Below, piece after piece: positions 2,472-20,180 of a DNA stretch of 64,000 bases. The notes beneath the pieces were generated by a model. It did no database searches, had not been told where the DNA came from, and was given only the letters and a program-made list of their open reading frames with translations. Source of the stretch: Rikenellaceae bacterium (GTDB taxonomy: Bacteria; Bacteroidota; Bacteroidia; Bacteroidales; Rikenellaceae); contig JBCQUZ010000001.1 in NCBI GenBank assembly GCA_047173645.1, forward strand, positions 219 to 64,218. The letters run 5' to 3'. The position numbers were made by a program, and so were the translations under genes. The first letter of the stretch is position 1; each line of letters starts with the position of its first letter.

Positions 2472-3377
2472 ATGCGCCCTCAAAAAATAACAACTCCTAC
2501 AACAGCTTTACGCAAAATCTCGATCTCTAAAATAAAGAAGGAGATGAGCGACGTGAGTTTCCTAAGCAATGATATGGTAATTACTAATATCACTGCTGAG
2601 ACAAATTATACGCTGACTCAGCCTGTTGCATTTAATGGCTTTTCGGCTATTATTATGATGTGTGGCGAGGCGAGGGTGTCGATTGATTTGAAGGAGTTTG
2701 TTGTAAAGCCTCGTGATATTGTTGTATTTTCGCCTCAAACGGCGATCAAGACGGTGAGTTGTTCTAACAATGCGGCGGCATATTTAATATCATTTTCTAA
2801 ATCTTTTATCGACGATTTGCAGATTGATTTATCGACGACGCTTCCGTTATATATGCGTTTTGGAAAGAATCCAGTGTTGCATCTCGATCAAGAGGATATA
2901 GATGAGATTCGTCAGCTATTTCGTCTAATAAAGACTATGCTCAAGAGCAATAAGGAGAAGTATCGTACGGAGATCATCAAGACTCTTTTTACGACGATGT
3001 TTTATATTCTCACCGAGCTGAACAATCGTGATGGGGAGGATCTTGGCAAAAAGGGGCGTTGCGAGGTGATATTTGATGAATTTTTGGATCTTCTTCAAAA
3101 ACATAGTCGCACGGAGCGTAATGTTAAATTTTATGCCGACAAGCTAAACATATCGACTAAATATTTGTCAGCGGTGGTGAAGGATGTGAGTGGTAAGACT
3201 GCCGCGAAGTGGATTGATGAGTCGGTGATACTTGAGGCTAAGACTTTGTTGAGATATTCGGGGCTTAGTATTCAAGAGATTGCAAATCATTTGAATTTTT
3301 CGACTCAATCGTTTTTTGGTAAATATTTTAAGCAACATACTGGGTCATCGCCTTCGAGGTTTAAGCGTATGGGTTAA
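2472..3377 (+). CDS. AraC-family transcriptional regulator
   Basis: C-terminal double HTH (FYADKLNISTKYLS...SIQEIANHLNFSTQSFFGKYFKQHTGSSP). Confidence 0.92.
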   Translation: MRPQKITTPTTALRKISISKIKKEMSDVSFLSNDMVITNITAETNYTLTQPVAFNGFSAIIMMCGEARVSIDLKEFVVKPRDIVVFSPQTAIKTVSCSNNAAAYLISFSKSFIDDLQIDLSTTLPLYMRFGKNPVLHLDQEDIDEIRQLFRLIKTMLKSNKEKYRTEIIKTLFTTMFYILTELNNRDGEDLGKKGRCEVIFDEFLDLLQKHSRTERNVKFYADKLNISTKYLSAVVKDVSGKTAAKWIDESVILEAKTLLRYSGLSIQEIANHLNFSTQSFFGKYFKQHTGSSPSRFKRMG

Positions 3378-3409
3378 AAATTGAGATAACATAAACATAT
3401 TTTATAGTT

Positions 3410-4048
3410 ATGAAACTTTATATTCCAACTTTTGGTGAGGAGATTGCCAACACCATATCGCATGGGGTTATGGCGCTATTGATTTTGCTTTTTATACCAT
3501 TTGCATCGGTGTGGTCGTATCTGCATGGAGGCGTGATGGAGGCGGTGACGGTATCTATATATCTTATTTCGATATTTGGGATGACTCTCTGTTCGACGCT
3601 TTATCACTCTATGGCTCCGCAATCTAAACATAAAGAGGTGTTTCATATTCTTGACCATATATTTATATATGTGGCGATTGCTGGCACTTATACTCCTATT
3701 GCGTTGTGTGTGATTGGAGGGTGGCAAGGGATTCTAATCACGGCGTTGCAATGGGCGATGGTTGTGTTTGGGGTGTTTTATAAGTCGTTGTCGCGAAGGT
3801 CGATACCTGCGGTGAGTCTCACGATTTATTTGGTTATGGGGTGGACTGTGGTGTTGTTTCTTCCGTTGTTTATAAACAATGCTTCGACCTCTTTGTTGTG
3901 GTTGATTGGTGGAGGCGGAGTGTTCTATTCGGTTGGGGCGTGGTTTTATGCGCGTAAAGGTTTTAGGTATCATCATTTGGTGTGGCACCTGTTTATTAAT
4001 ATCGCGGTGTTGATGCACTTTATAGCGATTATATTTTATTTGTACTAA
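3410..4048 (+). CDS. Hemolysin III / PAQR-family membrane protein
   Basis: EEIANTISHG, STLYH, LDHIFIY..IAGTYTP, HLVWHLF; about 7 TM segments. Confidence 0.92.
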   Translation: MKLYIPTFGEEIANTISHGVMALLILLFIPFASVWSYLHGGVMEAVTVSIYLISIFGMTLCSTLYHSMAPQSKHKEVFHILDHIFIYVAIAGTYTPIALCVIGGWQGILITALQWAMVVFGVFYKSLSRRSIPAVSLTIYLVMGWTVVLFLPLFINNASTSLLWLIGGGGVFYSVGAWFYARKGFRYHHLVWHLFINIAVLMHFIAIIFYLY

Positions 4049-4056
4049 TTTGTTTA

Positions 4057-4473
4057 ATGGAAGTAAATGTAGAAGAGCGCGTGGAGATGGCGCGTAAAAA
4101 TTTCTCGTCGGGGTATAATTGTGCTCAATCTGTGGTGTTGGCGTACAGCGATATTATGGATGTTGACCCTAAGATTCTCGCGACGCTTTCGGCATCTTTT
4201 GGCGGAGGGATGGGTCGTCTTCGCGAGGTGTGTGGTGCGGTGAGCGGTATGTCGATGGTGGCGGGGGCGTTAGCTCCAGCTTTTGACCCTGCGGAGCGTG
4301 CTGCGAAGAGTGCGAATTACACTTTGGTGAAAAATTTGGCGGATGAGTTTAAGAGTCAGAATGGTTCGATAATTTGTCGCGAATTGCTTCTTCATGGGGC
4401 TAAGAGACCTTGTGCAAAGCTTGTTGAGATGGCGGCTGAGATTGTTGCACATAGTATCAATAATGGCAATTAG
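4057..4473 (+). CDS. C-GCAxxG-C-C family putative redox protein
   Basis: YNCAQSV, FGGGMG, CGAVSG, GSIICRELL, C-terminal Cys. Confidence 0.88.
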   Translation: MEVNVEERVEMARKNFSSGYNCAQSVVLAYSDIMDVDPKILATLSASFGGGMGRLREVCGAVSGMSMVAGALAPAFDPAERAAKSANYTLVKNLADEFKSQNGSIICRELLLHGAKRPCAKLVEMAAEIVAHSINNGN

Positions 4474-4577
4474 GATTATCGGTTTTTGAAATAATTTTTG
4501 TTGATTTAGGTGGGGGCTGATTGATGGTTGATTTTTTTAACCATATTGCTACTTTTTAACCTTTAAATTTGGGATTG

Positions 4578-4612
4578 AGCCCGACTGACATTTTTGTTGG
4601 TCGGGCTTTTTT
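4578..4612 (+). terminator. Rho-independent terminator
   Basis: AGCCCGAC...GTCGGGCT stem followed by a T run. Confidence 0.85.
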
Positions 4613-4730
4613 GTGTTCGTATGGTTGAGTATTTGGTTGAAATGGAGATATTTTTTTTGATTTTAAAGAGGGTGTAATTCAACCAGTTAGTTCAATTAAT
4701 GAATATTTGAGTTAAAAATAATTGTTAAAA

Positions 4731-4981
4731 AACTTGACAAACGTGTTTTGATGTTGTATATTTGTGATGTCAAAGGTTGTTTGTTTGATGTTGGATTTAG
4801 TTTTTTTATTGTTTGTTTTTTGGAGGGTAGTTGGCGGAGTTATTAACATTTGTTTTTATTTATTAACATTGTGATTGAAAAGTTATTAACATTTGCCAGC
4901 TGCCTTATTTTCAGATTTAAATTCAATATATAGCGTGGGTTATTATTAGTTATTGACAATGAATATTAAGTTATTAACAAT
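4731..4981 (+). promoter_or_regulatory. Promoter (TATATTTG at 4757-4764) and leader with five TTATT(A/G)ACA repeats upstream of the phage-like operon
   Basis: Bacteroidota -7 consensus TAnnTTTG; repeats at about 4840, 4860, 4883, 4950 and 4971. Confidence 0.6.
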
Positions 4982-4998
4982 ATATTAAGATGTAGATT

Positions 4999-5904
4999 AT
5001 GTTTGTGAGTGAGCCAGAGGCATTCGCCTCATTTAGGGGAAAATTACTATTTGAGTATGAGCAGGAGGAGGAATCGGAGTTGGTTTTTGAAATTGAACTT
5101 GCGGAGGATGGGGATTATGTAGAGGTTAAAAAATTGTATGGAGTGGATGGTGCGACAATAAATGTTGCTCATGTGGTTGCCAACAGATTTATGACCGAGC
5201 CATCGAGCGGAGTTTCGTCGTTGGAGACTCCTCAGAGTGGTTATGGATTAGTGGCGGTGAAGTGTGGCGATGAGTCGACGGAGGCGCAATATTTTGTGGC
5301 GGCAAAGAGTCCACTGCCCGAGGTGGGTGTGTTGGCAACGATGCCTTTGGATAGGATCATAAGTTATGGCGAAGCGGATGAGGTGTGGATACGCGCTGGC
5401 GAAGGTGCTCAGGTGTTGGTTATGGTGGAGTGTGAAGATGAGGGTGGCACGACATCGACAACATTTGAACATACGGTAGAGGGGTGTGGACTTGCGAGGT
5501 TTAGGTTTGCGACCGAGGATTTTAGCTGTTACACGAAGATTGCCCATGTGGAGATATATTGCGATGGAGAGAGTTTGGCGCAGATGCGATATTGTTATGT
5601 GCCTTCGGTGTGGGGCGCTGTGAGGTTGGCATGGATTGGTGAGTGGGGAGGTGTGGAGCATTACACTTTTCCTGTGACAAATTCGCTGTCGTTATTGGCA
5701 AATGGAGCGCGTCATTATGAGGTTGAATCGGCATATGAGTCGTCGTCGGTGGTGGAGGCATTGGCGGAGATTGTGACATCGGAGAGGGTGTGGATCGTGG
5801 AGGATGGCGAATATATCGAGGTGGATATGTTGAGCGAATTGGTTTTGTTGAATAAGCGTCGAGAGTTGGCGACTGCGGAGTTTAAGTTTGCGAGGTATGA
5901 TTGA
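4999..5904 (+). CDS. Hypothetical protein, resembles Bacteroidota phage tail/distal-tail proteins
   Basis: C-terminal VRLAWIGEWGGVEHYTF...ALAEIVTSERVWIV pattern recalls Bacteroidota prophage tail proteins; overlaps next gene. Confidence 0.5.
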   Translation: MFVSEPEAFASFRGKLLFEYEQEEESELVFEIELAEDGDYVEVKKLYGVDGATINVAHVVANRFMTEPSSGVSSLETPQSGYGLVAVKCGDESTEAQYFVAAKSPLPEVGVLATMPLDRIISYGEADEVWIRAGEGAQVLVMVECEDEGGTTSTTFEHTVEGCGLARFRFATEDFSCYTKIAHVEIYCDGESLAQMRYCYVPSVWGAVRLAWIGEWGGVEHYTFPVTNSLSLLANGARHYEVESAYESSSVVEALAEIVTSERVWIVEDGEYIEVDMLSELVLLNKRRELATAEFKFARYD

Positions 5905-8194
5905 GTTGCTGATAGATGGGGTTAGTTGCGATGTTGATAGTGGGTCGACAATTGTACTTAGCTATGATTCTCAGAGGCTTGAGGATCTGGACACGATGAG
6001 CGACGGAGAGTCGGCGAGTGTGGTGATACCATCGTCGAGTGTGAATGATGCGATATTTGGCGACGATGGTTGGATTCATGCTCCCAAGAGGTTTAATGCT
6101 GTGGAGCACACGGCGGAGGTGTGGTGCCAGGGCGAGATGTTGTTTAGTGGAGCGGCATATTTGCAGGAGGTTGTGTGGGATGGCGGCAAGATGAGTTATG
6201 AGGTGTTGATAAGGGCGCAGAGGGCTTTATGGGCACAGACGGCGGCGGAGTCGACATTCAATGAGTTTGCGGTGGATCTGAATATGTATTTGGCGAAGGC
6301 GTACATCAAAGCGCAATGGGAGAGTGATGATGCGGTGAAGTTTGTCGCGGTGAGAAGGGACACTTACGAGGCGGTGCAGTCGGCGGTGTCGAATGAGGTG
6401 GTGCGCGAGATTGTGTCGTTAGAGGATTATCATCCGTTTTTGAGCGTGGAGGCGATGATGAGGTCGGTGTTCGAGAGTACGGGGTATACGGTGAAGAGTG
6501 ATTTTATGGAGAGTGATTACTTCAAGTCGTTGTATATGAGTGGGTCGTATGGGTCGTCGACAAATAGTACGGAGACTAAGAATGCGATGGATTTTTATGT
6601 GAAGCGATCGAGTGATTGTACGGTGAATGGCGATTATCGGGGTCGGGTATATATGACTCCATATTATGCGGCGAACACGGTGGGGATGGTGGTGGATCCC
6701 GACACGGTGAACACGGATAAGGATTGTTATTCGTATAGCGGTTGTTTTCAGACCTATAATACTGTTCCTGCGTTTGTGCCTACGGTGCAGGTCTATGTGG
6801 GGTTTGAGGTGAGGTTGTGTTATATTACCCCTTACAAGATTAAGAGTCGGGAGTTATTGACCGCTTATAATTCGGTTCATTTGTGTGTGGGGCACGATTA
6901 TGAGTTGGATATTGTCAACAATTTTGAGGATAAACGGGGGTCGTTATCGTCGTCGTTTAGTTATATGCTCTGCATTTTTGATTTTGACGAATCGACAGAT
7001 AATGTTAGTTTGTATTGCCGATTGGAGAGTGGGTCAATGTTGCATTATGGCGCGATAACGGAGAGGGTAACATATTTTACAACTCCATCGCAGCCGATTG
7101 CTGAGTTGGTGTTGGTCTATAACTTGAGTGATGGTAGTCAAGAGATATTTGCCAAGGATTGGGCGATATATAATGGTTATATCGAGGAGACTGGATCTAC
7201 GGAGGTGGATGTGACATTGAAGATAACACCAGAGCTTATATCGCCATCGTCGCCCAAGAAGTTCGATGAGATGTATATTGATTGTGGCGAAGAGGGGTGG
7301 GAGTTTACACTGCTCGAAGCAACTTCGATAACTCCATATTTTGCGAAACATCCTGGGGTTAATGCCAAACTTTCGTTTGCCGATGTGGCACAACACGATA
7401 AATTTCAATCGTCGTTGGTGGAGTCGATAGCTCATATGTATAATTTGAGGTTTTGGACGGATGACATAAATAAGGTGGTGTATGTGGAGCCTAATGATGA
7501 TATGTGGGACACGACGACAGTGTGGGATTGGAGTGATAAGATTGATCCCGATTCGGCAATTGAGATTGGAGATTTGGCGGAGGAGGTTTATCGCATACGC
7601 AAGTGGGGCTACAGGGATGGTGATGGAGTCACGGCGCGTGGAGATGGAGATATTCCTGCGGATGATGAGTTTGGATTTTGGTCGGGAGAGATAAACTCTA
7701 TGATTGCCAAAGAGGGGACAGAGTCGTTGCTTAGTCCATTGTATTCGCCTACGCAGAATGACGATCAGGGGTTGTTGCAGGTGGGCGATAGAGATGATTT
7801 GGACAATGTAAATTCGTTTGATTTTACGCCTCGGATTGTTAGGTGTGAGGGGCGATTGTTGTATGAGGGGTCTCAGATGCCATATATGGCTTTTTATCAA
7901 CCCGATATTGGGGTGTCGTTATGTTTTGAGGATCGTGGCGGAGTTGAGGGGTTGAATAGTTATTATGCGGAGCAAATTGCCACGGAGGAGCGCGCTAGGA
8001 TTGTGTCGTTGAGGTTGAGGTTAGAGCCGTTTGATGTGGCTAATTTGTTTATGAAGAGTGGTGTAGCTCCTAATATTACATCTACTTTTGGGTTCGATTT
8101 GGGAGGTGATTGGACTCGGTGTCGATTGAAGGAGATTGTGGAGTATGATCCTTTGAAGGAGGTGACGGTTTGTAGGTTTATTGTGGTGGATTAG
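5897..8194 (+). CDS. Large phage tail/baseplate-hub-like protein
   Basis: N-terminus MIELLIDG..CDV...LSY....LED......S..VVIPSS..ND.IFG and later SIAHMYNL.F / VYVEP / WDWSDKID, typical of Bacteroidota siphophage tail proteins (from recall). ATG 5897 overlaps the upstream stop. Confidence 0.55.
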   Translation: MIELLIDGVSCDVDSGSTIVLSYDSQRLEDLDTMSDGESASVVIPSSSVNDAIFGDDGWIHAPKRFNAVEHTAEVWCQGEMLFSGAAYLQEVVWDGGKMSYEVLIRAQRALWAQTAAESTFNEFAVDLNMYLAKAYIKAQWESDDAVKFVAVRRDTYEAVQSAVSNEVVREIVSLEDYHPFLSVEAMMRSVFESTGYTVKSDFMESDYFKSLYMSGSYGSSTNSTETKNAMDFYVKRSSDCTVNGDYRGRVYMTPYYAANTVGMVVDPDTVNTDKDCYSYSGCFQTYNTVPAFVPTVQVYVGFEVRLCYITPYKIKSRELLTAYNSVHLCVGHDYELDIVNNFEDKRGSLSSSFSYMLCIFDFDESTDNVSLYCRLESGSMLHYGAITERVTYFTTPSQPIAELVLVYNLSDGSQEIFAKDWAIYNGYIEETGSTEVDVTLKITPELISPSSPKKFDEMYIDCGEEGWEFTLLEATSITPYFAKHPGVNAKLSFADVAQHDKFQSSLVESIAHMYNLRFWTDDINKVVYVEPNDDMWDTTTVWDWSDKIDPDSAIEIGDLAEEVYRIRKWGYRDGDGVTARGDGDIPADDEFGFWSGEINSMIAKEGTESLLSPLYSPTQNDDQGLLQVGDRDDLDNVNSFDFTPRIVRCEGRLLYEGSQMPYMAFYQPDIGVSLCFEDRGGVEGLNSYYAEQIATEERARIVSLRLRLEPFDVANLFMKSGVAPNITSTFGFDLGGDWTRCRLKEIVEYDPLKEVTVCRFIVVD

Positions 8195-8253
8195 TTTTTT
8201 TGAGTTTTGGGTCGGTTTTGGGGTGGGTTGAGGGGTATCTTATTTTTAAAATT

Positions 8254-9195
8254 ATGGAAAATATTAGGATTCAGAATGCTCTCGATCTCTGTGTGATAGA
8301 TATTGAGGGAACCATAGGTGTGCCCGAAGAGTGGCAGTTTGATGACCCTCAACAGAGGGTGGCAACTTATGAGAAGTTTAGATCTGTAGTGGCGCAGATT
8401 GAGGAGTTGGAGGCGCAACAGGTGGTTGTGAATATTCGCTCGACGGGGGGCGATGTGAATGATGCACTATTAATATATGAGGCTTTGGTGTCGTTGGGTG
8501 CGCAGATCACGACTCGTTGTTATGGTTATGTGGCATCTGCCGCGACGGTGATTGCGCAGGCGGCATCGGAGGGGAAGCGTATGATCTCGGCAAATTCGCT
8601 CTATTTGATTCACAACTCTAGTTGTGTGGCGGAGGGAAACATTGATGATTTGAATGCTAGGGCAGAGCTATTGCGCAAGACCGATGAGCAGTTGGCTAAT
8701 TTGTATTCTGTGCGTGGCGGTCATTCGGTGGATGAGTATGTGGCACTAATGGCGAGCGATGGTGGTCGAGGCACTTGGTTGTCGGCACTTGAGACTATTG
8801 AGGCTGGTTTGGCAGACTCGATTATTGATGTGTCGTCGGTGGAGAGTGATGAATCTCAGGTCGAAGATCCACAGGTCGAAGAGGTCGAGCAGAGTGGTGT
8901 GAAGGCTATTTTTAAGGGTCTCACGCGTCGACTTGGATTTGAGTCGAAGGATCAAAAGGAGAAAGATCAGAAGGAGAAGGCGAAAATTGTGGGATTGCCT
9001 AAGTGCAGGCACAATATTTTGCATGATCCTATTAAAAATCAGAGTGATAGTTATTCGGCTATCGCTTTGGAGGAGGGGCAGAAGAGTATTTCGGCATCGA
9101 GGGTGATGCCCACAGAGGATGCTTCGTTGGGCGAGGCGATGATAAGTGCCAATGAGGCGGCTTATAGATATGATGCACAGCGATTTGCTAGATAG
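8254..9195 (+). CDS. ClpP-like phage prohead (head maturation) protease with charged C-terminal extension
   Basis: VNIRSTGGDV, YVASAATVI (catalytic Ser), LIHN (His), TWLSALETIEAGLAD. ATG 8254 follows an A/T-rich initiation region. Confidence 0.85.
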   Translation: MENIRIQNALDLCVIDIEGTIGVPEEWQFDDPQQRVATYEKFRSVVAQIEELEAQQVVVNIRSTGGDVNDALLIYEALVSLGAQITTRCYGYVASAATVIAQAASEGKRMISANSLYLIHNSSCVAEGNIDDLNARAELLRKTDEQLANLYSVRGGHSVDEYVALMASDGGRGTWLSALETIEAGLADSIIDVSSVESDESQVEDPQVEEVEQSGVKAIFKGLTRRLGFESKDQKEKDQKEKAKIVGLPKCRHNILHDPIKNQSDSYSAIALEEGQKSISASRVMPTEDASLGEAMISANEAAYRYDAQRFAR

Positions 9196-9353
9196 ATAAT
9201 TATAGGGTATCTAAATTTTATAGACATTAAAAAGCTCCATTTTGATTAAGAAAACTTGGGGGAGTAGGGAGCGGAATGGGCTTATTTTAGGTGTCTATTT
9301 GGGGGTGCTTATCTTTAAATATTTTAACATTTTTATTTTAGAAGAAAAAAATT

Positions 9354-10346
9354 ATGAGTTACATTGAATCAACAAAGAGCTACACAGGATCGGAGCTTGA
9401 GGTAGTATTTTTTAAGCCAATGCTTACGGGCGCAGCGGCTAACGACATCGGCGTGAAGGTGTTGTATAATATGCCTGTGCCAACAACGATTCACCATTGG
9501 GCGGGTCGAAGTGATATTTTGCAGAGCTACACCCAAGCTGGATGGAGCGCAGAGTCGGCAAACACGCGCACTCAAAAGACAATCGACATGAAGCGCGTAA
9601 AGGCGGAGATGGGATTCTCGGCAGCGGATTACTTCTCGCTTGTGTTTGAAAATGTGGCGACTAAGTCGGACATCGACAATTTGGATGATCTCACGGGGAC
9701 AGAGTTGGAGGCTGCCGAGACGGAGTTGTTCCGCAAGTCAATTGCCGAGTCGTTGCGTGTGACGATGTGGGCTGGCGACACTACGTCGAGCACAGCGCCA
9801 AATACATTTGATGGATTCTTGAAGATGATCGCTGCTGGCGTGAGCGACAAGAGTATCGCATCGACGACATTCACCAAGGGGTCGAACACTTCGCCAGAGT
9901 ACACATTGGAGCTGTTTGCTTCGCTTTGGGATCAAGCATCGACAACGCTGAAGGATGCTAAGTCGGAGGGTGAGTTGGCGATATTCGTGACTTCGGATAT
10001 TTACAACCACTACGAGATGGCGTTGGATGCTGTAGGTGCCGAGGGTGCTTATGTTGATGCACAGAGTGGTCGTATGAAGTTGATGTATCATGGTATGGAG
10101 GTGATCGATATGCACGTGGCTCCTTATGTAGATGCTTTAGGTTTGGAGGATACATTTGCGTTTATGACCGACAAGCGCAACTTGGTGATGGCGGTGAACA
10201 CGGCAGATTTCCCAGGGTCGGAGATTCGCATGTGGTACAATCCCGATGAGATGCAGAATCGTCAACGCGCCACATTTGCGGTGGGTTGCGAGATTGTCGA
10301 TGAGGAGTTGATTTCGTTTGCAACAACTTCATCTAGTAGCAATTAG
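9354..10346 (+). CDS. Putative major capsid protein
   Basis: 330 aa, directly after the prohead protease; MWAGDT...FDGFLK pattern seen in HK97-fold capsids; strong initiation region and expression-type codon bias. Confidence 0.65.
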   Translation: MSYIESTKSYTGSELEVVFFKPMLTGAAANDIGVKVLYNMPVPTTIHHWAGRSDILQSYTQAGWSAESANTRTQKTIDMKRVKAEMGFSAADYFSLVFENVATKSDIDNLDDLTGTELEAAETELFRKSIAESLRVTMWAGDTTSSTAPNTFDGFLKMIAAGVSDKSIASTTFTKGSNTSPEYTLELFASLWDQASTTLKDAKSEGELAIFVTSDIYNHYEMALDAVGAEGAYVDAQSGRMKLMYHGMEVIDMHVAPYVDALGLEDTFAFMTDKRNLVMAVNTADFPGSEIRMWYNPDEMQNRQRATFAVGCEIVDEELISFATTSSSSN

Positions 10347-10351
10347 AAGAT

Positions 10352-10801
10352 ATGGCAACAAGTAGCAGATCGAATGTTGGAGGGGTATTCAGCGTTGTGA
10401 TGTGGCTTGGCGGAGATAGTGGGAGGAGTGATCCTCCCACATCTTTAGATAGCGGAGTTATGGCGGTGAGGGTGCCTTTGATTTCGGAGATGAGCAGTTA
10501 CTCCGAATCGGTCGAGATAGATGGCGGAGTGCGACGAGTGGAACAGACACTAAATATTGTGACACATGCGCAGGATGATTTTTGGCGTAGGGCGGAGCTC
10601 TTTGGTGCGGAGCGCACGGGGTGTATTGCCGAAGTGGAGGTGTCATCTTTGGGGCGTATACTTTTGGGTTGGAGCTCTCGATTGGGTTACGATCAACCAC
10701 TTAGGTTGGTGCAGACATCGACACAGAGTAGCAGTTCGGTAGCACAGGGGTGTACCAAAAAGTGGGTGTTTAAGGCATATTCGACCCAATCATTAATTTA
10801 A
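10352..10801 (+). CDS. Hypothetical phage structural protein (possible tail tube/neck)
   Basis: 149 aa, beta-rich, N-terminal NVGGV motif; position after capsid gene. Confidence 0.4.
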   Translation: MATSSRSNVGGVFSVVMWLGGDSGRSDPPTSLDSGVMAVRVPLISEMSSYSESVEIDGGVRRVEQTLNIVTHAQDDFWRRAELFGAERTGCIAEVEVSSLGRILLGWSSRLGYDQPLRLVQTSTQSSSSVAQGCTKKWVFKAYSTQSLI

Positions 10802-10823
10802 GGTTAAGATTTATTGTTAAGGT

Positions 10824-12026
10824 ATGGCAAAGAGTAAAATTGCGGTGACCAATCGCGCCGATGATCCATATATTGGAGGTGGAGGTGTGGTGACGCAAAA
10901 GAGAGAGAAAGCGAGTAGTGAAAAATTTTGGCGTTGGGGCGATGATAATCTATTTCCCAATGCGTTGGCGGCGATGGCGCGACGATCGTCGACACATCGA
11001 AGGGTGATAAACGACAAGGCGGATTATATCGCTGGAAAGGGTGTGGCGTATGATACACAGGAGACTCTGCTGGGGCGATTTGTCGGAAGAGTAAATTCGC
11101 GCGGGGAGTCTCTGCGTCAAGTGTTGGCGAGGGTCGCTTTCGATAAGGTGTTGTTTGGAAACGCATTTGTGGAGGTGGTGTGTGATGAGGCGCACACGAC
11201 ATTGTCGCTGTATCATCACGACGCTTCGAGATGTCGAGTGTCGGCTGATTCGGAACATATAATTATGCACCATGATTGGTCGAGGTTTAAATTATCGGAG
11301 GCGACAACACTATCTTTGTATCCGAATTTTAGTGTGGCGGAGGATGGGACTCTGCGCGCTATGATTCACTACAAAGATTATGAGCCGATGTTTGAACATT
11401 ATGGTGTGCCAGCCTACATTGCGGGGTTGAATGTGGCAGCTATAGCACACAAGACCGATAGGTGGAATATTTCGAGGTTGGATAATTCGTTCCAGATGTC
11501 GGGTATCATGTTGTTGGACAACGCTGTGGATAGCGAAGCTGAAGCGGAGGAGGTGATCCGCACGGCACAGAGCAAGTTTGGGGGTAAGCCTGGGCAGGTG
11601 TTGTTTGTGATAAAGGATGGTTCGGAGAATGATAATTCGAAGTTTATACCCATATCGTCCGAAAACGATGGCGATTGGTGCGAATTGCATGAGCAGGCGA
11701 AGAGTGATATTGTGGTGGCTCATTCGTGGTTTGTGTCGCTCAGTGGGTTGGATTATTCGTCGGGATTTTCGGCAGAGAGGATTTTGTATGAGTATGAGGT
11801 GGCGCTTAACACCTTGATTTTGGGCGAGCAAGCGGAGTTACTGGAGCCTATAAAGGCGGTGATTGGCAATGTGTTGGGAGTTGATGCTTCGTCGGTCGAG
11901 ATTATCAACAAACCGCCCACCGAAAGCAAACCACAATATATGCGAGTGTGGGAGGCGCGCAAGGCTGATGGGTTGGATTATGATGCGGAGGATGAGCGTC
12001 AGCAATTGTATTTGTCGGAGATTTAA
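10824..12026 (+). CDS. Phage portal protein
   Basis: WG.DN.FP, D..LFGNAFVEV, YGVPAY, N...DNSF..SGI, IVVAH motifs typical of Bacteroidota phage portals; 400 aa. Confidence 0.8.
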   Translation: MAKSKIAVTNRADDPYIGGGGVVTQKREKASSEKFWRWGDDNLFPNALAAMARRSSTHRRVINDKADYIAGKGVAYDTQETLLGRFVGRVNSRGESLRQVLARVAFDKVLFGNAFVEVVCDEAHTTLSLYHHDASRCRVSADSEHIIMHHDWSRFKLSEATTLSLYPNFSVAEDGTLRAMIHYKDYEPMFEHYGVPAYIAGLNVAAIAHKTDRWNISRLDNSFQMSGIMLLDNAVDSEAEAEEVIRTAQSKFGGKPGQVLFVIKDGSENDNSKFIPISSENDGDWCELHEQAKSDIVVAHSWFVSLSGLDYSSGFSAERILYEYEVALNTLILGEQAELLEPIKAVIGNVLGVDASSVEIINKPPTESKPQYMRVWEARKADGLDYDAEDERQQLYLSEI

Positions 12027-12054
12027 GGGGAGTTCTAATTAAAAAGTAAAAGTG

Positions 12055-12465
12055 ATGAGATATAATGTATTGTCGATAATCGAGCCCGAGGAGGTGAAGT
12101 TAATAGCTTTTTCGGATGTGGCATCGGTGCCAACGGATATGATGTGTGGTGCTAATATAGAGTATGCGTTGAGTCGATTTGTGGAGCCTGTGACGGGGCG
12201 CAAATTGTTGGAGGCGGTGGCGCGAGGTGAGTATGAGGAGTTGAAGCGACGATTTTTGCAGGGGGCGGTGGCGCTCTATGTGAGATATATTTCGGGGTAT
12301 GACAGCGAAGAGAGTGCTTTGAGGGTATTGACTCGCGCGCGACACTATCTCAAACAGATGTCGCACTATTTGGAGGTGAATAGTAGCAAGTTCAAGGAGT
12401 ATGATGGCGCGGAGAATATATTAAATAGATGTAAGATTTATGGAGACTTGGTGCAGATACTTTAG
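12055..12465 (+). CDS. Putative head-tail adaptor / phage protein
   Basis: Small helical protein right after the portal; IIEPEEV..IAF and FVEPVTG.KL pattern. Confidence 0.45.
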   Translation: MRYNVLSIIEPEEVKLIAFSDVASVPTDMMCGANIEYALSRFVEPVTGRKLLEAVARGEYEELKRRFLQGAVALYVRYISGYDSEESALRVLTRARHYLKQMSHYLEVNSSKFKEYDGAENILNRCKIYGDLVQIL

Positions 12466-12856
12466 CGGTGCGCTTATGTCGTTGTGCGGATTGTTTGCTC
12501 CGATAACCCCACTTGTGTGGTGTGTGGTGGCATTTATTGCCATTGACTTTGTGACGGGCAATATGGCATCTATGGCTAGAGCGCGACGCGAGGGAAAGGA
12601 GTGGTATTTTCGGAGTTATTATGCGTGGCGCACGATATATAAGTTGGGATTTTCGATTATTGCCATCGGGATGGCGTGGTTGATTGATGAGTGTGTGATG
12701 ACATTTGTGGTGTTGAATTTGGCGAGGTTCGTCGCGGGGTTTGTGTGTGGAGTCGAGATGTGGTCGTTTTTGGAGAATGCGGCGCAAATATCTAATGCTC
12801 CGTTGTTTAGGTGGTTACAGAGGTTCGTCTATCAAAAGGTTAAGGATAGGTGTTAG
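12440..12856 (+). CDS. Phage holin family protein
   Basis: About 3 TM helices; FAPI, IAIDFVTG, RTIYK, E.WSFLEN motifs of holin-4-like proteins. Confidence 0.8.
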   Translation: METWCRYFSGALMSLCGLFAPITPLVWCVVAFIAIDFVTGNMASMARARREGKEWYFRSYYAWRTIYKLGFSIIAIGMAWLIDECVMTFVVLNLARFVAGFVCGVEMWSFLENAAQISNAPLFRWLQRFVYQKVKDRC

Positions 12857-12882
12857 AGGGGACTAGTGGTGAGTTAGTTTCG

Positions 12883-12952
12883 GGTGAGGATTTTCGGGCT
12901 GTGGCGGTCGTTTAAGGGCGATCGGAGGGCGGTTGAAGATCCTCACCTTTTT
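12883..12952 (+). terminator. Terminator-like long hairpin closing the phage-like operon
   Basis: GGTGAGGATTTTC (12883-12895) pairs with GAAGATCCTCACC (12935-12947), followed by TTTTT. Confidence 0.7.
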
Positions 12953-12988
12953 GTGTGTATTATTAAAAAAAATAAAAAACAATATTGA

Positions 12989-13081
12989 AAAATACCTTAA
13001 ATCGGTTATAAAACCGAAAAATGCCTCTTAAAAATACCTAATTTCGGTTATTGTGCGATTTTCACACTTACTTTACCTTTG
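12989..13081 (+). promoter_or_regulatory. Promoter of TonB operon with 21-bp direct repeats
   Basis: AAAATACCTTAAATCGGTTAT (12989) and AAAATACCTAATTTCGGTTAT (13031), 42 bp apart; TACCTTTG at 13074-13081. Confidence 0.65.
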
Positions 13082-13144
13082 CAACATCGCTTTTAGTTTA
13101 TAAAAAAACATAAAAGATTAGAATAGGTTGTTAAAATAAAGGTT

Positions 13145-15616
13145 ATGAGGTTGGGAAGAATTTTATTATTTTTGATGGCGAGTGTGATCTCTTTGAGTCA
13201 CTCAACGCTATTTGCTGTTGAGAGAGGTGGCGATAGAGGTAGAATGGCTGAGGTTAAGGGTATAGTGACATCGGGAGAGGATGGAGCTGCGATAGCTTAT
13301 GCCACGGTACATGTTGATGGAACGAATGTCGGAACCTCAACCGACGAGAAGGGTCGTTATCACTTGCGATTGCCACAGGGCGAATACACATTAGTGGCGA
13401 CTTATGTGGGTTACGAAAGCTACTCTCAAAAGGTAGATATGCCACAAAGAGGTGAAATTGTGGTTCACATGTCGCTCACACCATCGACAACAGATATTGA
13501 TGCTGTGGAGGTGAAGAGCGAGAGCCAAATGCAACGCATAAATAAATCTGCATACAATGTACAATCTCTTTCGCTCGAAGGGTTTAAAAATTCGGCGGCG
13601 ACAATGACCGATGTTTTGGCAAAGATGGGAGGTGTTAAGATTCGTGAGGCTGGAGGAGTTGGTAGCGATACCAATATTTCGATAAATGGATATTCGGGCA
13701 ATCATGTCAAGATATTTATAGATGGAGTGCAGTTGGATCAAAACAACTCATCATTCTCGTTGAGTAATATGCCCACGAACTTTGCTGAGAGAATTGATGT
13801 ATATAGCGGAGTTGTGCCCATTGAGTTTGGAACAGATGCCATCGGAGGTGTTATCAATATTGTTACCGACAAATCGCAACGATTCAGAGCGTTTAATCTC
13901 GATGCGTCGTACTCTTATGGTTCGTTCAATACACACTCTACATATCTAAACTTTGGTCAAACATTCGAAAGTGGTTTTATGTATAATATCAACGCATATC
14001 AAAATTATTCGGATAATGATTATTGGATTGATGCTATGATGTGTGATTTGAACAGTGTCGGTGGTATTGCATCGATGACAGTTAGCGGAGAGACTAAGCG
14101 AGTTAGACGCTTTAATGATGCCTATCACAACGAAACTGTGATTGGGACAATGGGTGTGGTAAACAAATCATGGGCAGATCTATTGACTTTGAAGTTTAAC
14201 TATTCACAATACTTCAACGAGATTCAAAATGGAACGATCCAAGATCACCGCGCTTATGGACAAAAGGAGCGTAACGGATACTCTATAACTCCAACTTTGG
14301 AGTACTCAAAAAATAATCTATTTACCGAGGGTTTGGATGTTCGTTTTAGTGCCAACTATTCGTCGGGATATACTCGCAACTACGATCCAGGGGGTGTGAC
14401 CTACAACTGGTTGGGCGAGAGTGTTACAAACAATCAAATCTCGATGACCGACACCGAGATGCAAAATAATAGCTACAATGTGAATTTTGTAACTAAGTAT
14501 CACTTCATGGATCGCCACGAGTTTGCATTCGCCTCGACTTTGAGCTCTGCATCGCGCGAGACTCGTTCGATTATAGAGTCTACATTGAAGTATGATGTGT
14601 GGAGCGACCCTTTGGTAAATCTCAAAAATATCGCAGGATTATCTTATAGATTTAATATAAACGAAAAGTTTGATGCTTCGTTATTTGCAAAGAACTATTG
14701 GCAACTCAACGAGGGTAATATCTATGATAGCGACACTGCAGAGTATGAGTGGATGACATCGACAAGCAGTCTATGGGGTTATGGAGCTGCTGCGACATAC
14801 TTCCCATTTGAGAGCGTGCAGATTAAAGCCTCATACGAAAAGGCGTATCGTTTGCCAACAACAACCGAAATATTTGGTGATAATGATCTTGAGAATGGAG
14901 AGTTTACACTTAAGCCTGAGTCGAGCGATAATTTGAACCTCAATTTGAAGTACACTCTTGAGGTAGGCAAACACACACTCACAGCGGATGCGAACCTAAT
15001 CTACCGCTACACGAAGGATTATATATATCGTTCGACAACAAGTACATACAATATATATGTATCATCGGCATCATACGAAAACTTCGGTCAAGTTAAAACT
15101 AAAGGTTACACAGCATCTTTGCGCTACAACTATGATGATTTCTTTGATGTGGGAGGAACCTTCAATCAGCTCAATGCTCGCAACAACGAGAAGAATGTAG
15201 TGTCGGCAGGTACAAGTTTTACGAGCGTAACTTATGGCGTGCGACTTCCTAACACTCCTTATCAATATGCTAACCTCGATGGTGAGTTGAACGTGTCGAA
15301 GATGTTGGATAGTGGGTCTCAATTCTTTGCTAAGCATAACTTTGCAATCACCTATGATCTGTTCTATCAACATGAGTTCCCATTGCATTGGGAGAATCTT
15401 GGAGATCCGGCAACTAAGGCAAAGGTACCAAGTCAAATATCACATAGCTTGATGCTTAACTATTCGTTCCAAAAGGGTAAGTATAATGTGTCGTTCGAGG
15501 CTCGCAACCTAACAGATGCTAATTTGTACGACAACTATTCGCTCCAAAAACCTGGACGTGCATTCTACGCTAAGTTAAGAGTGAATATAAATAAAGCAAA
15601 AAAGGTAACAGAATAA
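13145..15616 (+). CDS. TonB-dependent receptor (iron/siderophore type)
   Basis: Signal peptide, CarboxypepD_reg-like N-domain, plug (ERIDVYSGVVP..FG.DAIGGVINIVT), C-terminal NLTD..LYDNYSLQKPGR.FY. Confidence 0.92.
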   Translation: MRLGRILLFLMASVISLSHSTLFAVERGGDRGRMAEVKGIVTSGEDGAAIAYATVHVDGTNVGTSTDEKGRYHLRLPQGEYTLVATYVGYESYSQKVDMPQRGEIVVHMSLTPSTTDIDAVEVKSESQMQRINKSAYNVQSLSLEGFKNSAATMTDVLAKMGGVKIREAGGVGSDTNISINGYSGNHVKIFIDGVQLDQNNSSFSLSNMPTNFAERIDVYSGVVPIEFGTDAIGGVINIVTDKSQRFRAFNLDASYSYGSFNTHSTYLNFGQTFESGFMYNINAYQNYSDNDYWIDAMMCDLNSVGGIASMTVSGETKRVRRFNDAYHNETVIGTMGVVNKSWADLLTLKFNYSQYFNEIQNGTIQDHRAYGQKERNGYSITPTLEYSKNNLFTEGLDVRFSANYSSGYTRNYDPGGVTYNWLGESVTNNQISMTDTEMQNNSYNVNFVTKYHFMDRHEFAFASTLSSASRETRSIIESTLKYDVWSDPLVNLKNIAGLSYRFNINEKFDASLFAKNYWQLNEGNIYDSDTAEYEWMTSTSSLWGYGAAATYFPFESVQIKASYEKAYRLPTTTEIFGDNDLENGEFTLKPESSDNLNLNLKYTLEVGKHTLTADANLIYRYTKDYIYRSTTSTYNIYVSSASYENFGQVKTKGYTASLRYNYDDFFDVGGTFNQLNARNNEKNVVSAGTSFTSVTYGVRLPNTPYQYANLDGELNVSKMLDSGSQFFAKHNFAITYDLFYQHEFPLHWENLGDPATKAKVPSQISHSLMLNYSFQKGKYNVSFEARNLTDANLYDNYSLQKPGRAFYAKLRVNINKAKKVTE

Positions 15617-15637
15617 ATATTAAATTAAAACAAAAAA

Positions 15638-17359
15638 ATGATGAAAAAAAATGTAACAATTTCGAGATTGTTTGTTGCAGCAACAGCTGTAGCAGTCGCA
15701 ATGTCATCTTGTACAAAAGATGATGCAGCAGGTAGCAGTAGCAGTAGCGATGATTATGATGCTTTCGCAACCGATTTTTACCCAACAGCGATCTATTTTA
15801 CTCAGATTAATCCAAACAACACTACAAGTACAGAGTATTTTACATATCAACTTGCTGAGGATTTCTTGTTGGGAGATTATGTGGAGGCAGGTGAGAGATC
15901 TCCAGAGACGGTAAACTTCCCTGGTTTTGTTCAAGCTAATGGTAAGACTTATGTGTCGGTTGCTACAACTGGTGTTACTGGTTACTCTGTAGCTTCAGCA
16001 GATTTCGAGACTAACATGCAAACTTTGCTCGACAACGAGGGATTCGGAGGTGAGCCTTGGGATTATGTATCGTTGAACTACTCTGTGGCTTACATGAGCT
16101 ACGAGGGTGACACTAGTGGTTCTGGTTACTCTTCGTCTGGTTCATACTCAAGCGGTATTGCTTACCCACTTACTCCACACAAAGCTCGTGTTGCGGTATA
16201 TGGTCAATCAGCACCATTTGATTTGATGGCAACTACTCCATCAAAGGTTCTTACTACAGATCTTATCGGTCAAGCATATGGTCGCTACCTTGGTAACCCA
16301 TACAACACAATGATGACTAACTCTGATGAGTCATTCGTATATGTATTCTCTCCAGGATCAACTCGTAAGTTCGACTGTGTTAGAACCACAAACGAGGCTG
16401 ATGGCACCGAGATTCTTCAAGAGTACACCGAGAAGACAACCTATACAGAGACAGCTGATCGCACAGTGCGCAAGGTTGCTAACGGTGGCGCTACAGCTGG
16501 TGTTATCCGTATCAACACTACAACAGATGCAATTGATACTAGCTTTGGTACTAATGGTGTTGTTGAGCTTGAGGATACCTACTTCAACGGATGTACATTC
16601 TCTCAAGTATGGCACATAACGGGCGACAAGTACCTTCTTCGTGTGATGGATGAGGCTAACACAACTGCTCACGGTTTCTACTACGCATTCCACAAAAATC
16701 AACCATGGGATACTCGTTTCTTCATCTTCGATGCTGCGACTGTAACTATGACAGAGATCTCTGCTCTTCCAGTATATGAAGATTTGATGGCTGCTTCGAA
16801 CACTATCGGTGAGCCATTGTGTACAGATAGCAAGGTCTACATCCCATACTCTCTTGCTACAGGAGCTTGTGTTTATGTTGTAGATATTACAGGTTCTTCA
16901 TACTCAGGTGTAAAGGGTGCATCTTCGGACGCTAACTACATCTATGGTATGGGTATGTTGACATGTGCTACAGATGCTTCAGTAGAGAAGATTATCCTTG
17001 CTACTCGTGTTACTGATGGTGCATTCTACTATCTTGATGCAACAGTTGCGGAGGTTGAGGATCCATCAGAGGTATTGACTATGCAAGGTGATGGTGTCGA
17101 GGTAAACAATGGTCAAGTCATCCACTTCATCGACAATAAGTACCTATTCACTCTTTATGAGGCAGGAGGTTCTGACGGTGTTCAATGTAATGGATACACG
17201 CTTCAGGAGGATGGTGAGCTTAAGGCTTTGATGGGTTCTGGATATTGGACAACATCTGGTTACCACTCAGAAGGAAACCTTGGAGACTACTTCACATATA
17301 TGAGATGGTCGACTCTAAGTAGCGATGTGACTCCTCGTCAATACCCTACACAAGAGTAA
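15638..17359 (+). CDS. Surface lipoprotein, DUF4374/XusB-like beta-propeller (apparently permuted)
   Basis: Lipobox MSSC followed by TKDD export-like signal; DUF4374-like segments GVIRINT..D.ID, QVWHITGDKYLL, VYVFSP. Confidence 0.7.
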   Translation: MMKKNVTISRLFVAATAVAVAMSSCTKDDAAGSSSSSDDYDAFATDFYPTAIYFTQINPNNTTSTEYFTYQLAEDFLLGDYVEAGERSPETVNFPGFVQANGKTYVSVATTGVTGYSVASADFETNMQTLLDNEGFGGEPWDYVSLNYSVAYMSYEGDTSGSGYSSSGSYSSGIAYPLTPHKARVAVYGQSAPFDLMATTPSKVLTTDLIGQAYGRYLGNPYNTMMTNSDESFVYVFSPGSTRKFDCVRTTNEADGTEILQEYTEKTTYTETADRTVRKVANGGATAGVIRINTTTDAIDTSFGTNGVVELEDTYFNGCTFSQVWHITGDKYLLRVMDEANTTAHGFYYAFHKNQPWDTRFFIFDAATVTMTEISALPVYEDLMAASNTIGEPLCTDSKVYIPYSLATGACVYVVDITGSSYSGVKGASSDANYIYGMGMLTCATDASVEKIILATRVTDGAFYYLDATVAEVEDPSEVLTMQGDGVEVNNGQVIHFIDNKYLFTLYEAGGSDGVQCNGYTLQEDGELKALMGSGYWTTSGYHSEGNLGDYFTYMRWSTLSSDVTPRQYPTQE

Positions 17360-17383
17360 TCTAACAAATATTATAATAAATAT

Positions 17384-17426
17384 AAAGGAGGGATTCTCTG
17401 AGCCTATTTTGAGAATCTCTCCTTTT
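17384..17426 (+). terminator. Hairpin/terminator between lipoprotein and reductase genes
   Basis: AAAGGAGGGATTCTC...GAGAATCTCTCCTTTT. Confidence 0.7.
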
Positions 17427-17460
17427 CACTAATTCAAACATTTAAACAAAAAATAAAGAT

Positions 17461-18495
17461 ATGTTAACAGCACTATTTGATCTTCTCGATTTCTTGCGCT
17501 CTAACTTCTCGATGCTTTTCGCACTTGCGTTCTACACGATTTTGGCGGTGGCTTTGGCGAAATCTATCAAGAAGCACTACAAGGTATATTATTGGTTATT
17601 TGGTCTGCTTTCGGCTGGTTTTGTAATCCCTACGGTTTTCCGTTTGTGTGGTTCATCGTTCCCATTTGATTTGGGTAAGATTCCATTCTTTGGGCCTTGT
17701 TTTTCGGAGCTTTCGAGCGCGGCAAACTTTGTTCACCCTGTACTTATCATCATCATGTATATGGGTGCTTTCAGTCCTAAAAATCAATACATTGGTCGTT
17801 TGATGTCTATCCGTAAGGAGCTTTCGATCATCGTTGGTTTCCCAGTTATTGCACACGCTATGAAGCGTCTGTTCGGAACTTTTGTTGGCGGATGGAACTT
17901 CTTCTTTGACCATGAGACCGCTATTCAAAGTCCACGTGTTACGAGTGTTATTGGTTCGGGAATTTCGAGCTTCGTATATGTTTTGGGTCTTGTGATGTTT
18001 GTTTTGTTCCTTGTTTTGTGGATCACATCGTTTGACTCGGTACACCGCAAGTTGGGAACTCAAAAGTGGAAGGCGGTTCAAAAGTGGTCTTATGGGTTGT
18101 ATGCAATGTTGTTTATCCACGCTATGGGTCTTAACTTGGGTGGTTATATCAGCGACAAGGCTCGCGAAGCACAACAAGCACAGCGTGCTCAAACCGAGAT
18201 GGTATCACAAGCTCGTCCAGAGGGACAATCACAAGAGCGTCAAGCTGGACAAGGAGCCTCTCAACAACAAGCGAGTCAAGGTGCGCATGGTGCACAACAA
18301 CAACCTCAAGCGCAAGCGCAACAAGGAGGTCATGGATCTCGTCCACAACCATTTAAGTTCTCGGAGATCGAGATTAGCCGTGGCGCAAAGCGTATTCTTA
18401 ATATGATTATCCTTGTGTTGATCTATGGTTCATATCTATTCTTCCGCCTTTGCAAAGCATCAAAGGCAAAGGCTGCTAAGGTCGCTAGATCTTAG
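17461..18495 (+). CDS. Ferric reductase-like transmembrane protein (MsrQ/YedZ-like) with Gln/Ala/Gly-rich insert
   Basis: RKELSII...IAH, LWITSF....RKLG..KWK.VQKWSY..Y....IH heme-b ligand pattern. Confidence 0.75.
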   Translation: MLTALFDLLDFLRSNFSMLFALAFYTILAVALAKSIKKHYKVYYWLFGLLSAGFVIPTVFRLCGSSFPFDLGKIPFFGPCFSELSSAANFVHPVLIIIMYMGAFSPKNQYIGRLMSIRKELSIIVGFPVIAHAMKRLFGTFVGGWNFFFDHETAIQSPRVTSVIGSGISSFVYVLGLVMFVLFLVLWITSFDSVHRKLGTQKWKAVQKWSYGLYAMLFIHAMGLNLGGYISDKAREAQQAQRAQTEMVSQARPEGQSQERQAGQGASQQQASQGAHGAQQQPQAQAQQGGHGSRPQPFKFSEIEISRGAKRILNMIILVLIYGSYLFFRLCKASKAKAAKVARS

Positions 18496-18512
18496 GTTTA
18501 GCCAATCCATTA

Positions 18513-18585
18513 AATAAAATTTCACCGCATATTGCGGCAGACTCGATTAGATCAACTCTGCAACAATATGCGGTGAAATTTTATT
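18513..18585. terminator. Bidirectional hairpin between convergent genes
   Basis: AAATTTCACCGCATATTG...CAATATGCGGTGAAATTT inverted repeat. Confidence 0.75.
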
Positions 18586-18608
18586 ATTAATAATAGTAGT
18601 AAATAGAT

Positions 18609-20052: not shown

Positions 20053-20180
20053 ATTGTTTGGAATTGTGATGCAAAGGTAAGAATTATTTTCTAATTTCCA
20101 AAATAATTGAGTATTATTTTTTCAGCAACAAAACCCCAAAACATAAAACATATTGATTACCAAACATATAGCATGCGAAA

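Follow-up and report, generated by a model that had tools for sequence, protein, structure and literature searches.

The closest described counterparts of the element reported here are two gene transfer agents (GTAs), a class with a six-point definition (PMC9662315), and one defective phage. RcGTA, of the Rhodogtaviriformidae, has siphophage-derived genes for head, portal, protease, terminase, distal tail protein (Dit) and hub, which lie in several loci without replication or integration genes and are inherited vertically (PMC9662315, PMC7296036). It has retained fibres, five tube rings and a short tape measure; its DNA is ejected into the periplasm, and it depends on competence proteins (PMC7296036). 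FpGTA of Faecalibacterium, a gut anaerobe, occupies two operons and is widespread in the genus; its particles, without a visible tail, were demonstrated together with their 8-9 kb of DNA, and its small terminase has no obvious DNA-binding domain (PMC12946183). PBSX of Bacillus subtilis is a resident defective phage that packages host DNA (PMC12946183). Here we describe an element found in a 64,000-nt stretch of DNA (the window) from contig JBCQUZ010000001.1 of Rikenellaceae bacterium GCA_047173645.1, a genome labelled G000 in our set, with an assembly completeness of 89%. Our literature search, with subscription papers and bioRxiv supplements lying outside it, returned no description of this element.

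The element is a domesticated temperate siphophage that is inherited vertically in two loci, a structural operon, which lies in the window, and a module of repressor, orf114 and terminase genes. That this is a real, old and functional domestication of a Bacteroidales siphophage we regard as nearly certain. Three genomic points of the definition in PMC9662315 are found in it, namely caudoviricete-derived proteins, full endogenization over loci and mostly vertical co-diversification. It shares with RcGTA the gene set named above, the spread over several loci, the vertical inheritance and the lack of replication and integration genes at these loci, and with FpGTA a gut-anaerobe host and two operons. 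Unlike RcGTA, it stems from a separate family of Bacteroidales prophages, its tape measure is absent or reduced to the C-terminal end, it has no fibres and often no tube, and it keeps a phage-type S24 repressor and a separate terminase locus; in Alistipes it has yielded no small terminase. Its nearest relatives, the Bacteroidales prophages, and the absence of tape measure and fibres from its loci set it apart from the Rhodogtaviriformidae, to which it does not belong. FpGTA, unlike the element, is podovirus-like, has tail fibre and receptor-binding genes and lives in a Gram-positive host, and its particles have been seen, whereas the Rikenellaceae element is known from genes alone; PBSX differs by its full tail and tailocin action (PMC12946183).

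The structural operon occupies positions 4999-12856 of the window, on the plus strand, as eight open, co-oriented and tightly packed open reading frames (ORFs), g1-g8, just as the initial annotation had described them, and the host-type promoter and the terminator that it placed on either side were also found:

4690-4704, no strand assigned: candidate operator, an imperfect TTCAA-N3-4-TTGAA copy, named for its likeness to the palindrome in the repressor/orf114 spacer
4734-4764, plus strand: promoter TTGACA-N17-TATATTTG, kept across the family
4840-4979, no strand assigned: four TTATTAACA repeats in the leader
4999-5904, plus strand: g1, 301 aa, two immunoglobulin (Ig)-like domains and a C-terminal split-barrel; putative Dit
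5897-8194, plus strand: g2, 765 aa, predicted gp27/T5-pb3-type baseplate hub with an inserted jelly-roll (about residues 225-484)
8254-9195, plus strand: g3, ClpP-type prohead protease (PF00574, E 1e-27; phrog_94)
9354-10346, plus strand: g4, 330 aa, putative major capsid protein (phrog_212, weak match, 8e-5)
10352-10801, plus strand: g5, 149 aa, putative tail tube protein; homologous to the gene that lies 3' of the capsid gene in prophages
10824-12026, plus strand: g6, portal (PF04860, 4e-10; phrog_11226)
12052-12465, plus strand: g7, DUF6712 family, putative head-tail adaptor
12440-12856, plus strand: g8, holin (Phage_holin_4_1, PF05105, 7.7e-13)
12882-12952, plus strand: intrinsic terminator right after g8, a hairpin (12882-12948) followed by U4

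The ClpP protease, the portal and the holin score above the Pfam cut-offs. The catalytic Ser and His of the protease are invariant in all 135 aligned g3 homologues, phage copies included, and its C-terminus is probably a scaffold; the portal is 53-70% identical across the loci of 40 relatives. The g4 product appears to be a major capsid protein of the HK97 fold, as the PHROG major head family is matched by 22 of the 79 members of its alignment and the protein is 46-50% identical to the product of the prophage gene between protease and tail tube. For g5, a tail tube protein is probable: searches from g5 and from the prophage post-capsid gene retrieve the identical 76 sequences, and the nearest named atlas clusters of the prophage homologue are tail-tube families (0.84-0.85, as a lead only). 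The g7 product is probably the head-tail adaptor, with PF20459 matched by 70 of the 75 members of its alignment and a homologue adjoining the portal gene on its 3' side in prophages. Profile searches of the g4, g5 and g7 alignments against the sequences of solved structures gave nothing useful.

The two tail-tip proteins were assigned from predicted structures. The g2 model (predicted local distance difference test score, pLDDT, 91) has the T5 tail tip as its top Foldseek match (E 2.5e-6) and matches phage hubs with Z 13.5, identifying the predicted fold as a gp27-type baseplate hub; the jelly-roll insert matches the phi812 knob (Z 9.5) and is possibly a receptor-binding module. The hub label of the initial annotation is thereby borne out, and its tail-like label for g1 can be taken only as far as a presumptive Dit. 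In the g1 model (pLDDT 96), residues 205-301 match a split-barrel with Z 7.9, besides the Ig folds, and the whole-length structural matches are unnamed phage proteins, including those of Bacteroidota phages (best TM score 0.79). Ig domains fill the matches of Foldseek and VIA searches with g1, and no solved Dit is among the matches listed. A g1 homologue precedes the hub gene in related prophages, and this position, together with the whole-length matches, argues for a Dit.

The origin of the element can be read from its relatives. IMG/VR holds 31 loci with a g4-type capsid, some of them host fragments equal to the operon; 19 (L107-L114, L119-L128 and L132) fall into two prophage groups, and the contigs of these groups that reach far enough carry a tape measure of 1070-1478 aa. 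Two prophages inspected in detail have fibres and a holin, one of them with an endolysin, and G500 is a provirus rated 100% by CheckV. In G500 and G503, the order is repressor, early genes with orf114, replication genes, small and large terminase, c55, c17, a 155-aa gene, g1, g2, tape measure, protease, capsid, g5, portal and g7. The IMG/VR Bacteroidales siphophages G499-G503 and a prophage in G101 have the same gene order as the element, with repressor and orf114 homologues, and are related to it at 46-50% (capsid), 58-65% (portal) and 58-59% (terminase) identity. Unlike the element, they possess tape measures of 1070-1478 aa, fibres, a tail-completion-like gene, replication genes and a full small terminase. 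Because the related prophages show the same order, that of the operon is inherited; the idea that it was shuffled, and that shuffling is a sign of domestication, was therefore rejected.

The chromosomal element is this prophage genome minus the replication block, the tape measure, the 155-aa gene and the fibres. Tape measure and 155-aa gene were found in none of 120 chromosomal loci, and 184 loci had no match to fibre genes and none to phage replication genes except one host-like DnaB. The putative late-activator gene of the prophages had no match in the 184 loci or in G000, and a search for the tape measure elsewhere in five closed genomes gave only weak partial matches, in G179. As no copies turned up elsewhere, the tape measure and fibres, and in many lineages the tail tube or the small terminase, seem to have been lost and not moved to another site. 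The initial annotation had proposed that the missing parts are encoded elsewhere, which holds for terminase and repressor and seems to fail for tape measure and fibres. A short ORF that ends with approximately the last 45 residues of the tape measure remains in ten loci; in T5, this end of the protein plugs the hub (PMC10038345). Another prophage gene, c17, is probably a tail terminator, judged from its co-occurrence with gene g5, the two being concordant in 92 of 99 loci with kin that are not independent (54 both absent, 38 both present). It is absent from the window, whose small subclade is exceptional in having gene g5 without c17, and the closed genome G128 has no tail tube match.

The family sample comprised 201 Rikenellaceae genomes (126 high-quality, 31 genera) and the order sample 301. 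The capsid gene was found in 167 of the 201 family genomes, 115 of the 126 high-quality ones and 24 of the 31 genera, at about 50% identity and nearly always in single copy. Terminase was found in 175, being missing from the same genera as the capsid, and the hub in 145, five of these weakly. Genera g5, g12, g15, g19, g23 and g31 lack all three, and genus g21 has a single terminase among seven genomes. Ten element-free genomes from six genera form one RpoB clade (support 0.98; genus g5 has no RpoB match), which suggests one loss. Across the order, portal matches occurred in seven of the 301 genomes, of which the four outside the family are distant and only family members close. In 40 loci picked across the genera the gene order is constant and the flanking host genes vary. 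The type strains A. putredinis DSM 17216, A. timonensis and A. muris carry the element.

The genes follow their hosts. Patristic distances of capsid and portal correlate with those of RpoB (Mantel r 0.85, n=36; best of 999 permutations 0.23), as do those of the terminase (r 0.78, n=34; best of 999 permutations 0.30); here the host tree is the single marker RpoB, and G000, which has no RpoB match, stands outside these tree comparisons. The capsid and portal tree recovers 10 of the 15 strong host splits and the terminase tree eight. In a three-gene IQ-TREE phylogeny, a branch with an SH-like approximate likelihood ratio test (SH-aLRT) value of 95 separates three prophage rows from the 35 chromosomal copies, and genus g1 is a clade (100); when it is rooted on the prophages, genera g11 and g17 with their neighbours are basal, close to the host tree. 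Ratios of nonsynonymous to synonymous substitution rates (dN/dS) were calculated by the Nei-Gojobori method on nearest-neighbour pairs, with saturated pairs (4 to 25 per gene) dropped. Over 13 genes, the median ranges from 0.08 for the repressor, the lowest, to 0.41 for c17, and every usable pair stays below 1; of the genes for structure and packaging, those of terminase, portal and protease are under the strongest constraint. Split core genes occur in two of 120 loci (L043 and L046), one of them in a genome with RpoB also frameshifted. The checks that the initial annotation had proposed, on presence and gene order across the family, an orphan terminase of like distribution, congruence with the host tree and dN/dS below 1, all came out in its favour.

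The second locus of G000 lies on a separate contig:

G000:C143:27003-29596: repressor-orf114-terminase module
G000:C143:27003-28490, minus strand: large terminase
G000:C143:28475-28819: orf114, 114 aa, preceding the terminase; homologue of a prophage early gene

The absence of repressor and terminase noted in the initial annotation is thus true of the window and does not extend to the genome. The XRE/S24 repressor gene points away from orf114 and terminase, and the module is flanked by urease genes and a radA-like gene, both labels being read from translations. The repressor adjoins the terminase in 39 and orf114 in 35 of 43 chromosomal terminase loci examined. Family searches with orf114 and c17 matched no informative family; orf114 has a conserved PVWWEFHT motif and a dN/dS of 0.28. 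Structural operon and terminase locus form one element because they are joined in five genomes: the terminase lies directly upstream of the protease in G044, G105 and G010, and in G065 and G108 the repressor, orf114 and terminase precede the tail-tip genes by about 5 kb on the same strand. In the closed genomes G086, G116, G128 and G179 the two loci are about 0.8-1.7 Mb apart, and three loci instead of two occur in G006, G024 and G045. The Walker A and nuclease motifs of the terminase are intact in 33 of 33 sequences, and the cleavage site, Ser and Lys of the repressor are kept in 23 of 25.

Both loci carry conserved control sequences. In the operon promoter, TAnnTTTG is what we take to be a Bacteroidota-type -7 box, and TTGAC-N15-21-TAnnTTTG occurs in 87 of 101 operon leaders; with a shorter leader, the pattern is present in 77 of 100 leaders vs none of 100 shuffles. 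Its strict form occurs once in G000, and the TTGACA form was looked for in two related prophages and is absent there. At the second locus, the repressor/orf114 spacer of about 140 bp holds two opposed -7 boxes and a TTCAA-N3-4-TTGAA palindrome, which recurs in 27 of 28 aligned Alistipes spacers. Allowing one mismatch at most, 11 of 87 loci have a copy of the palindrome close to the structural promoter, against 1.6 expected from shuffles, and an operator-profile scan gave no clear genome-wide regulon. On these motifs, the repressor could plausibly control both loci directly in part of the family. S24-family repressors are known for induction by DNA damage, and by family membership the element is likely to be DNA-damage-inducible; PBSX, too, is under a phage-type repressor. 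A sequencing-run search with the A. putredinis cluster gave no RNA dataset among the matches listed. The leader motif TTATTAACA, presumably DnaA-box-like, occurs in 58 of 100 leaders, compared with no more than 8 of 116 internal controls, and only two 400-bp bins of G000 hold at least three copies. The terminator hairpin folds at -38.7 kcal/mol (z -5.8; none of 200 shuffles folds as well), and a simple terminator scan missed it because its loop is long.

The operon sits among ordinary host genes. The upstream neighbours are the host genes ApbE, YegS-type kinase, AraC, HlyIII and C_GCAxxG_C_C, and downstream follows a TonB-dependent receptor (Pfam). In agreement with the initial annotation, which saw no integrase or att repeats, none of the 48 tyrosine-integrase matches in G000 is on the operon or terminase contig, and no near-exact repeat pair brackets the cluster among the 20 largest direct-repeat families listed for positions 3000-15000. 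The element is thus neither a functional temperate prophage, which would combine integrase and att sites with replication genes and a tape measure in a single block, nor a tailocin or contractile injection system, since it has kept head and terminase and lost the tape measure.

We propose that DNA damage would lead to self-cleavage of the S24-type repressor and free the terminase promoter, and probably the structural promoter too in the subclade of the window. A head would be built from protease, capsid and portal, and the large terminase would fill it with non-specific chromosomal DNA, its small partner being absent in Alistipes and often without a DNA-binding head elsewhere. The portal would be closed by the adaptor, at most a few tube rings, Dit and hub, with the Ig and jelly-roll domains serving for attachment. 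Holin and endolysin would then free the particles from a minority of cells, and the DNA would pass to the periplasm of a recipient and enter through ComEC. The formation of DNA-filled heads is likely. That the element works as a GTA, with stub-tailed or tail-less particles containing the cell's own DNA, has in our estimate a probability of about 0.55. A more detailed version is tentative and on balance doubtful: a DNA-damage-inducible GTA would have arisen from a long-tailed phage by tail deletion, with the Dit ring seated on the neck in core Alistipes, DNA handed over to ComEC, whose gene lies right behind the lysis genes, and bare heads in the deepest genera. The terminase would in this version work without a small subunit, orf114 perhaps substituting. 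Stopper, terminator, tube and Dit share one fold in RcGTA (PMC7296036), which makes a direct neck-to-Dit joint conceivable.

Several features of the packaging, lysis and uptake genes bear on these steps. Among 65 chromosomal terminase loci, nine have a small terminase of the G503 type and three, of genera g11 and g17, another short type. Two of the nine copies have no Pfam match, and five others have no helix-turn-helix by inspection. The small terminase selects the phage's own genome in most phages (PMC6854486), and its erosion therefore fits non-specific packaging; it could instead mean inefficient packaging. Of 111 loci, 52 have holin and endolysin together, 41 have one of the two and 18 have neither. 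The initial annotation was right that the operon of the window has no endolysin, and none was found by profile in G000; most relatives have one (phrog_873) 3' of the holin or adaptor gene, and it is present in 12 of 12 genomes of the same genus. Small contigs of G000 (C70, C160 and C224) carry unrelated phage genes (DUF6549-like, holin/lysin-like and capsid-like), and such prophage pieces could supply a lysin. Of 26 loci with comEC near the operon (e.g. L034:13175-14653), 19 have it starting 34-223 bp past the endolysin gene on the same strand.

A number of observations weigh against a working GTA. Delivery is the weakest step: no route is evident, because tape measure and fibres are absent, the tube is often lost and genus g17 lacks the hub, and the tail is reduced further than that of RcGTA. 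Specifically, 54 of 99 loci have neither tail tube nor terminator-like gene, c17 has no match in G000, and 16 genomes of genus g17 gave no hub match. G110 and G151 (99% complete) match the terminase and neither capsid nor hub. The terminase loci of Alistipes, like G000, yielded no small terminase, and the remaining two of the nine copies, which are basal, retain a helix-turn-helix. An endolysin is not nearby in 37 of 111 loci, and the family endolysin profile has no match in G000 (89% complete), where the operon ends at the holin. The comEC linkage occurs among kin and is absent in G000. The trees conflict strongly with RpoB twice for capsid and portal and once for the terminase. Finally, in a long-read survey of three human gut donors with a 3-kb fragment cut-off, Rikenellaceae are among the most abundant families in total DNA, and among the 63 packaging events in the table of PMC12946183 none is of GTA type for the family; its rows for 'A. 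megaguti' and 'A. avistercoris', which we read as Alistipes, are prophage inductions. The gap could be explained by tight repression, light particles or fragments below 3 kb, and it counts against constitutive particle production. The main text of PMC13371034 does not mention Rikenellaceae.

The same missing parts lend themselves to the reading that particles with host DNA form and deliver nothing, acting as decoys, adhesins or DNA-release vehicles or arising as by-products of programmed lysis. Tape measure and fibres are gone, many lineages, including many Alistipes, have lost the tube and the deepest genera the hub, and PBSX is a precedent for packaging DNA without transducing (PMC12946183). 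Yet PBSX kills with a full tail, which the Rikenellaceae element lacks, the constraint on terminase, portal and protease is a cost that pure lysis would not need, and most genera retain hub and Dit. We therefore hold this reading to be unlikely, though it is the strongest of the alternatives.

Less probable still is an anti-phage device, in which the repressor would confer immunity to the parent phage family, head, terminase and tail-tip proteins would poison the assembly of an incoming relative or divert its packaging to host DNA, and the holin would be a suicide switch. Related prophages with 46-65% identical capsid and portal do circulate, the repressor has the lowest dN/dS (0.08), and lineages have kept different subsets of the parts. 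On the other hand, G101 holds a related, tape-measure-bearing prophage beside its domesticated copy, and a complete, catalytically intact head pathway throughout the family exceeds what interference needs.

Capsid-forming phage-inducible chromosomal islands (PICIs) are a precedent for heads that borrow phage tails, and they integrate, replicate and self-package. Heads filled with host DNA might likewise take the tails of co-resident or environmental phages, without self-packaging. Genera g11 and g17 come nearest to this, with a head-only gene set like that of the PICIs, comprising terminase, protease, capsid, portal and a doubled adaptor, and without a strong hub match. In most genera, the element's own Dit and hub are under selection, needless for a tail thief, and we consider tail borrowing improbable. 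The element is itself no PICI: unlike these islands, which are self-mobile and patchy, it has no integrase or primase/replication module at its loci and follows the host tree. Lastly, a decaying prophage without current function, to which the gene-by-gene losses, one deleted (L204) and two split copies (L043, L046) among 120 loci and the capsid and hub losses in G110 and G151 might point, is very improbable, as proteins diverged by about 50% keep open frames, dN/dS well below 1 and intact active sites, the promoter is kept in 87 of 101 leaders and the trees follow the host, so that trees and dN/dS largely refute it.

Alistipes and its relatives are abundant gut bacteria, and a family-wide inducible packaging of DNA would, if true, be an unrecognised route of gene exchange. 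Our literature search found no characterised GTA for Bacteroidota, and the element would, if confirmed as a GTA, be the first in the phylum. It would also represent a natural series from a siphovirus to a tail-less particle. The tape measure goes first in this series, followed by tube and terminator, small terminase and hub, and with the parents sequenced these stepwise losses could reveal the course of phage domestication and the minimum particle. As cultured type strains carry the element, these proposals are directly testable.

Some further observations concern single loci. In genera g17 and g11, L042, L044 and L045 have a head-only set of terminase, protease, capsid, portal and adaptor; the adaptor measures 319-379 aa, with two DUF6712 stretches in two of the three loci, and the short small terminase is of a different kind. 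The version in these genera is possibly a separate domestication. In the single genome G101 (L069, L070), the domesticated copy coexists with a related prophage that has tape-measure sequence. In one A. senegalensis assembly (L204), hub and protease are internally deleted, and in two IMG/VR contigs (L130, L131) the capsid gene is interrupted by 6-8 kb. In L107 (G500), four extra copies of approximately the last 38 tape-measure codons lie at about 4400-6800, each opening with a similar short motif and apparently separating inserted cargo genes. This end looks like a cassette-integration site, and the copies offer a route to the chromosomal tape-measure remnant.

The bare operon also occurs as 4-11 kb 'viral' contigs in IMG/VR (L102, L103, L105, L106, L115-L118 and L129), apparently trimmed host DNA, and virome counts are contaminated by such deposits. 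The INPHARED capsid match is one unannotated 7.4-kb faecal contig, MT838736.1 (L328), with a 52% identical capsid, portals there being otherwise distant; it is probably a trimmed host operon as well.

At the second locus of G000, a urea ABC transporter and urease cluster, read from translations, lies directly downstream of the terminase (G000:C143:15646-26936). The TTATTAACA and TGTTGATAA repeats cluster at two sites of this genome, the operon leader and an intergenic stretch after fabH (G000:C170, about 20100-20250), which might be a replication origin. In the window, positions 13145-19853 hold the TonB-dependent receptor, a lipoprotein, a membrane protein and an alginate-lyase-like ORF, the last three labelled by eye, and GC skew drops from about +0.4 to near 0 past 14 kb.

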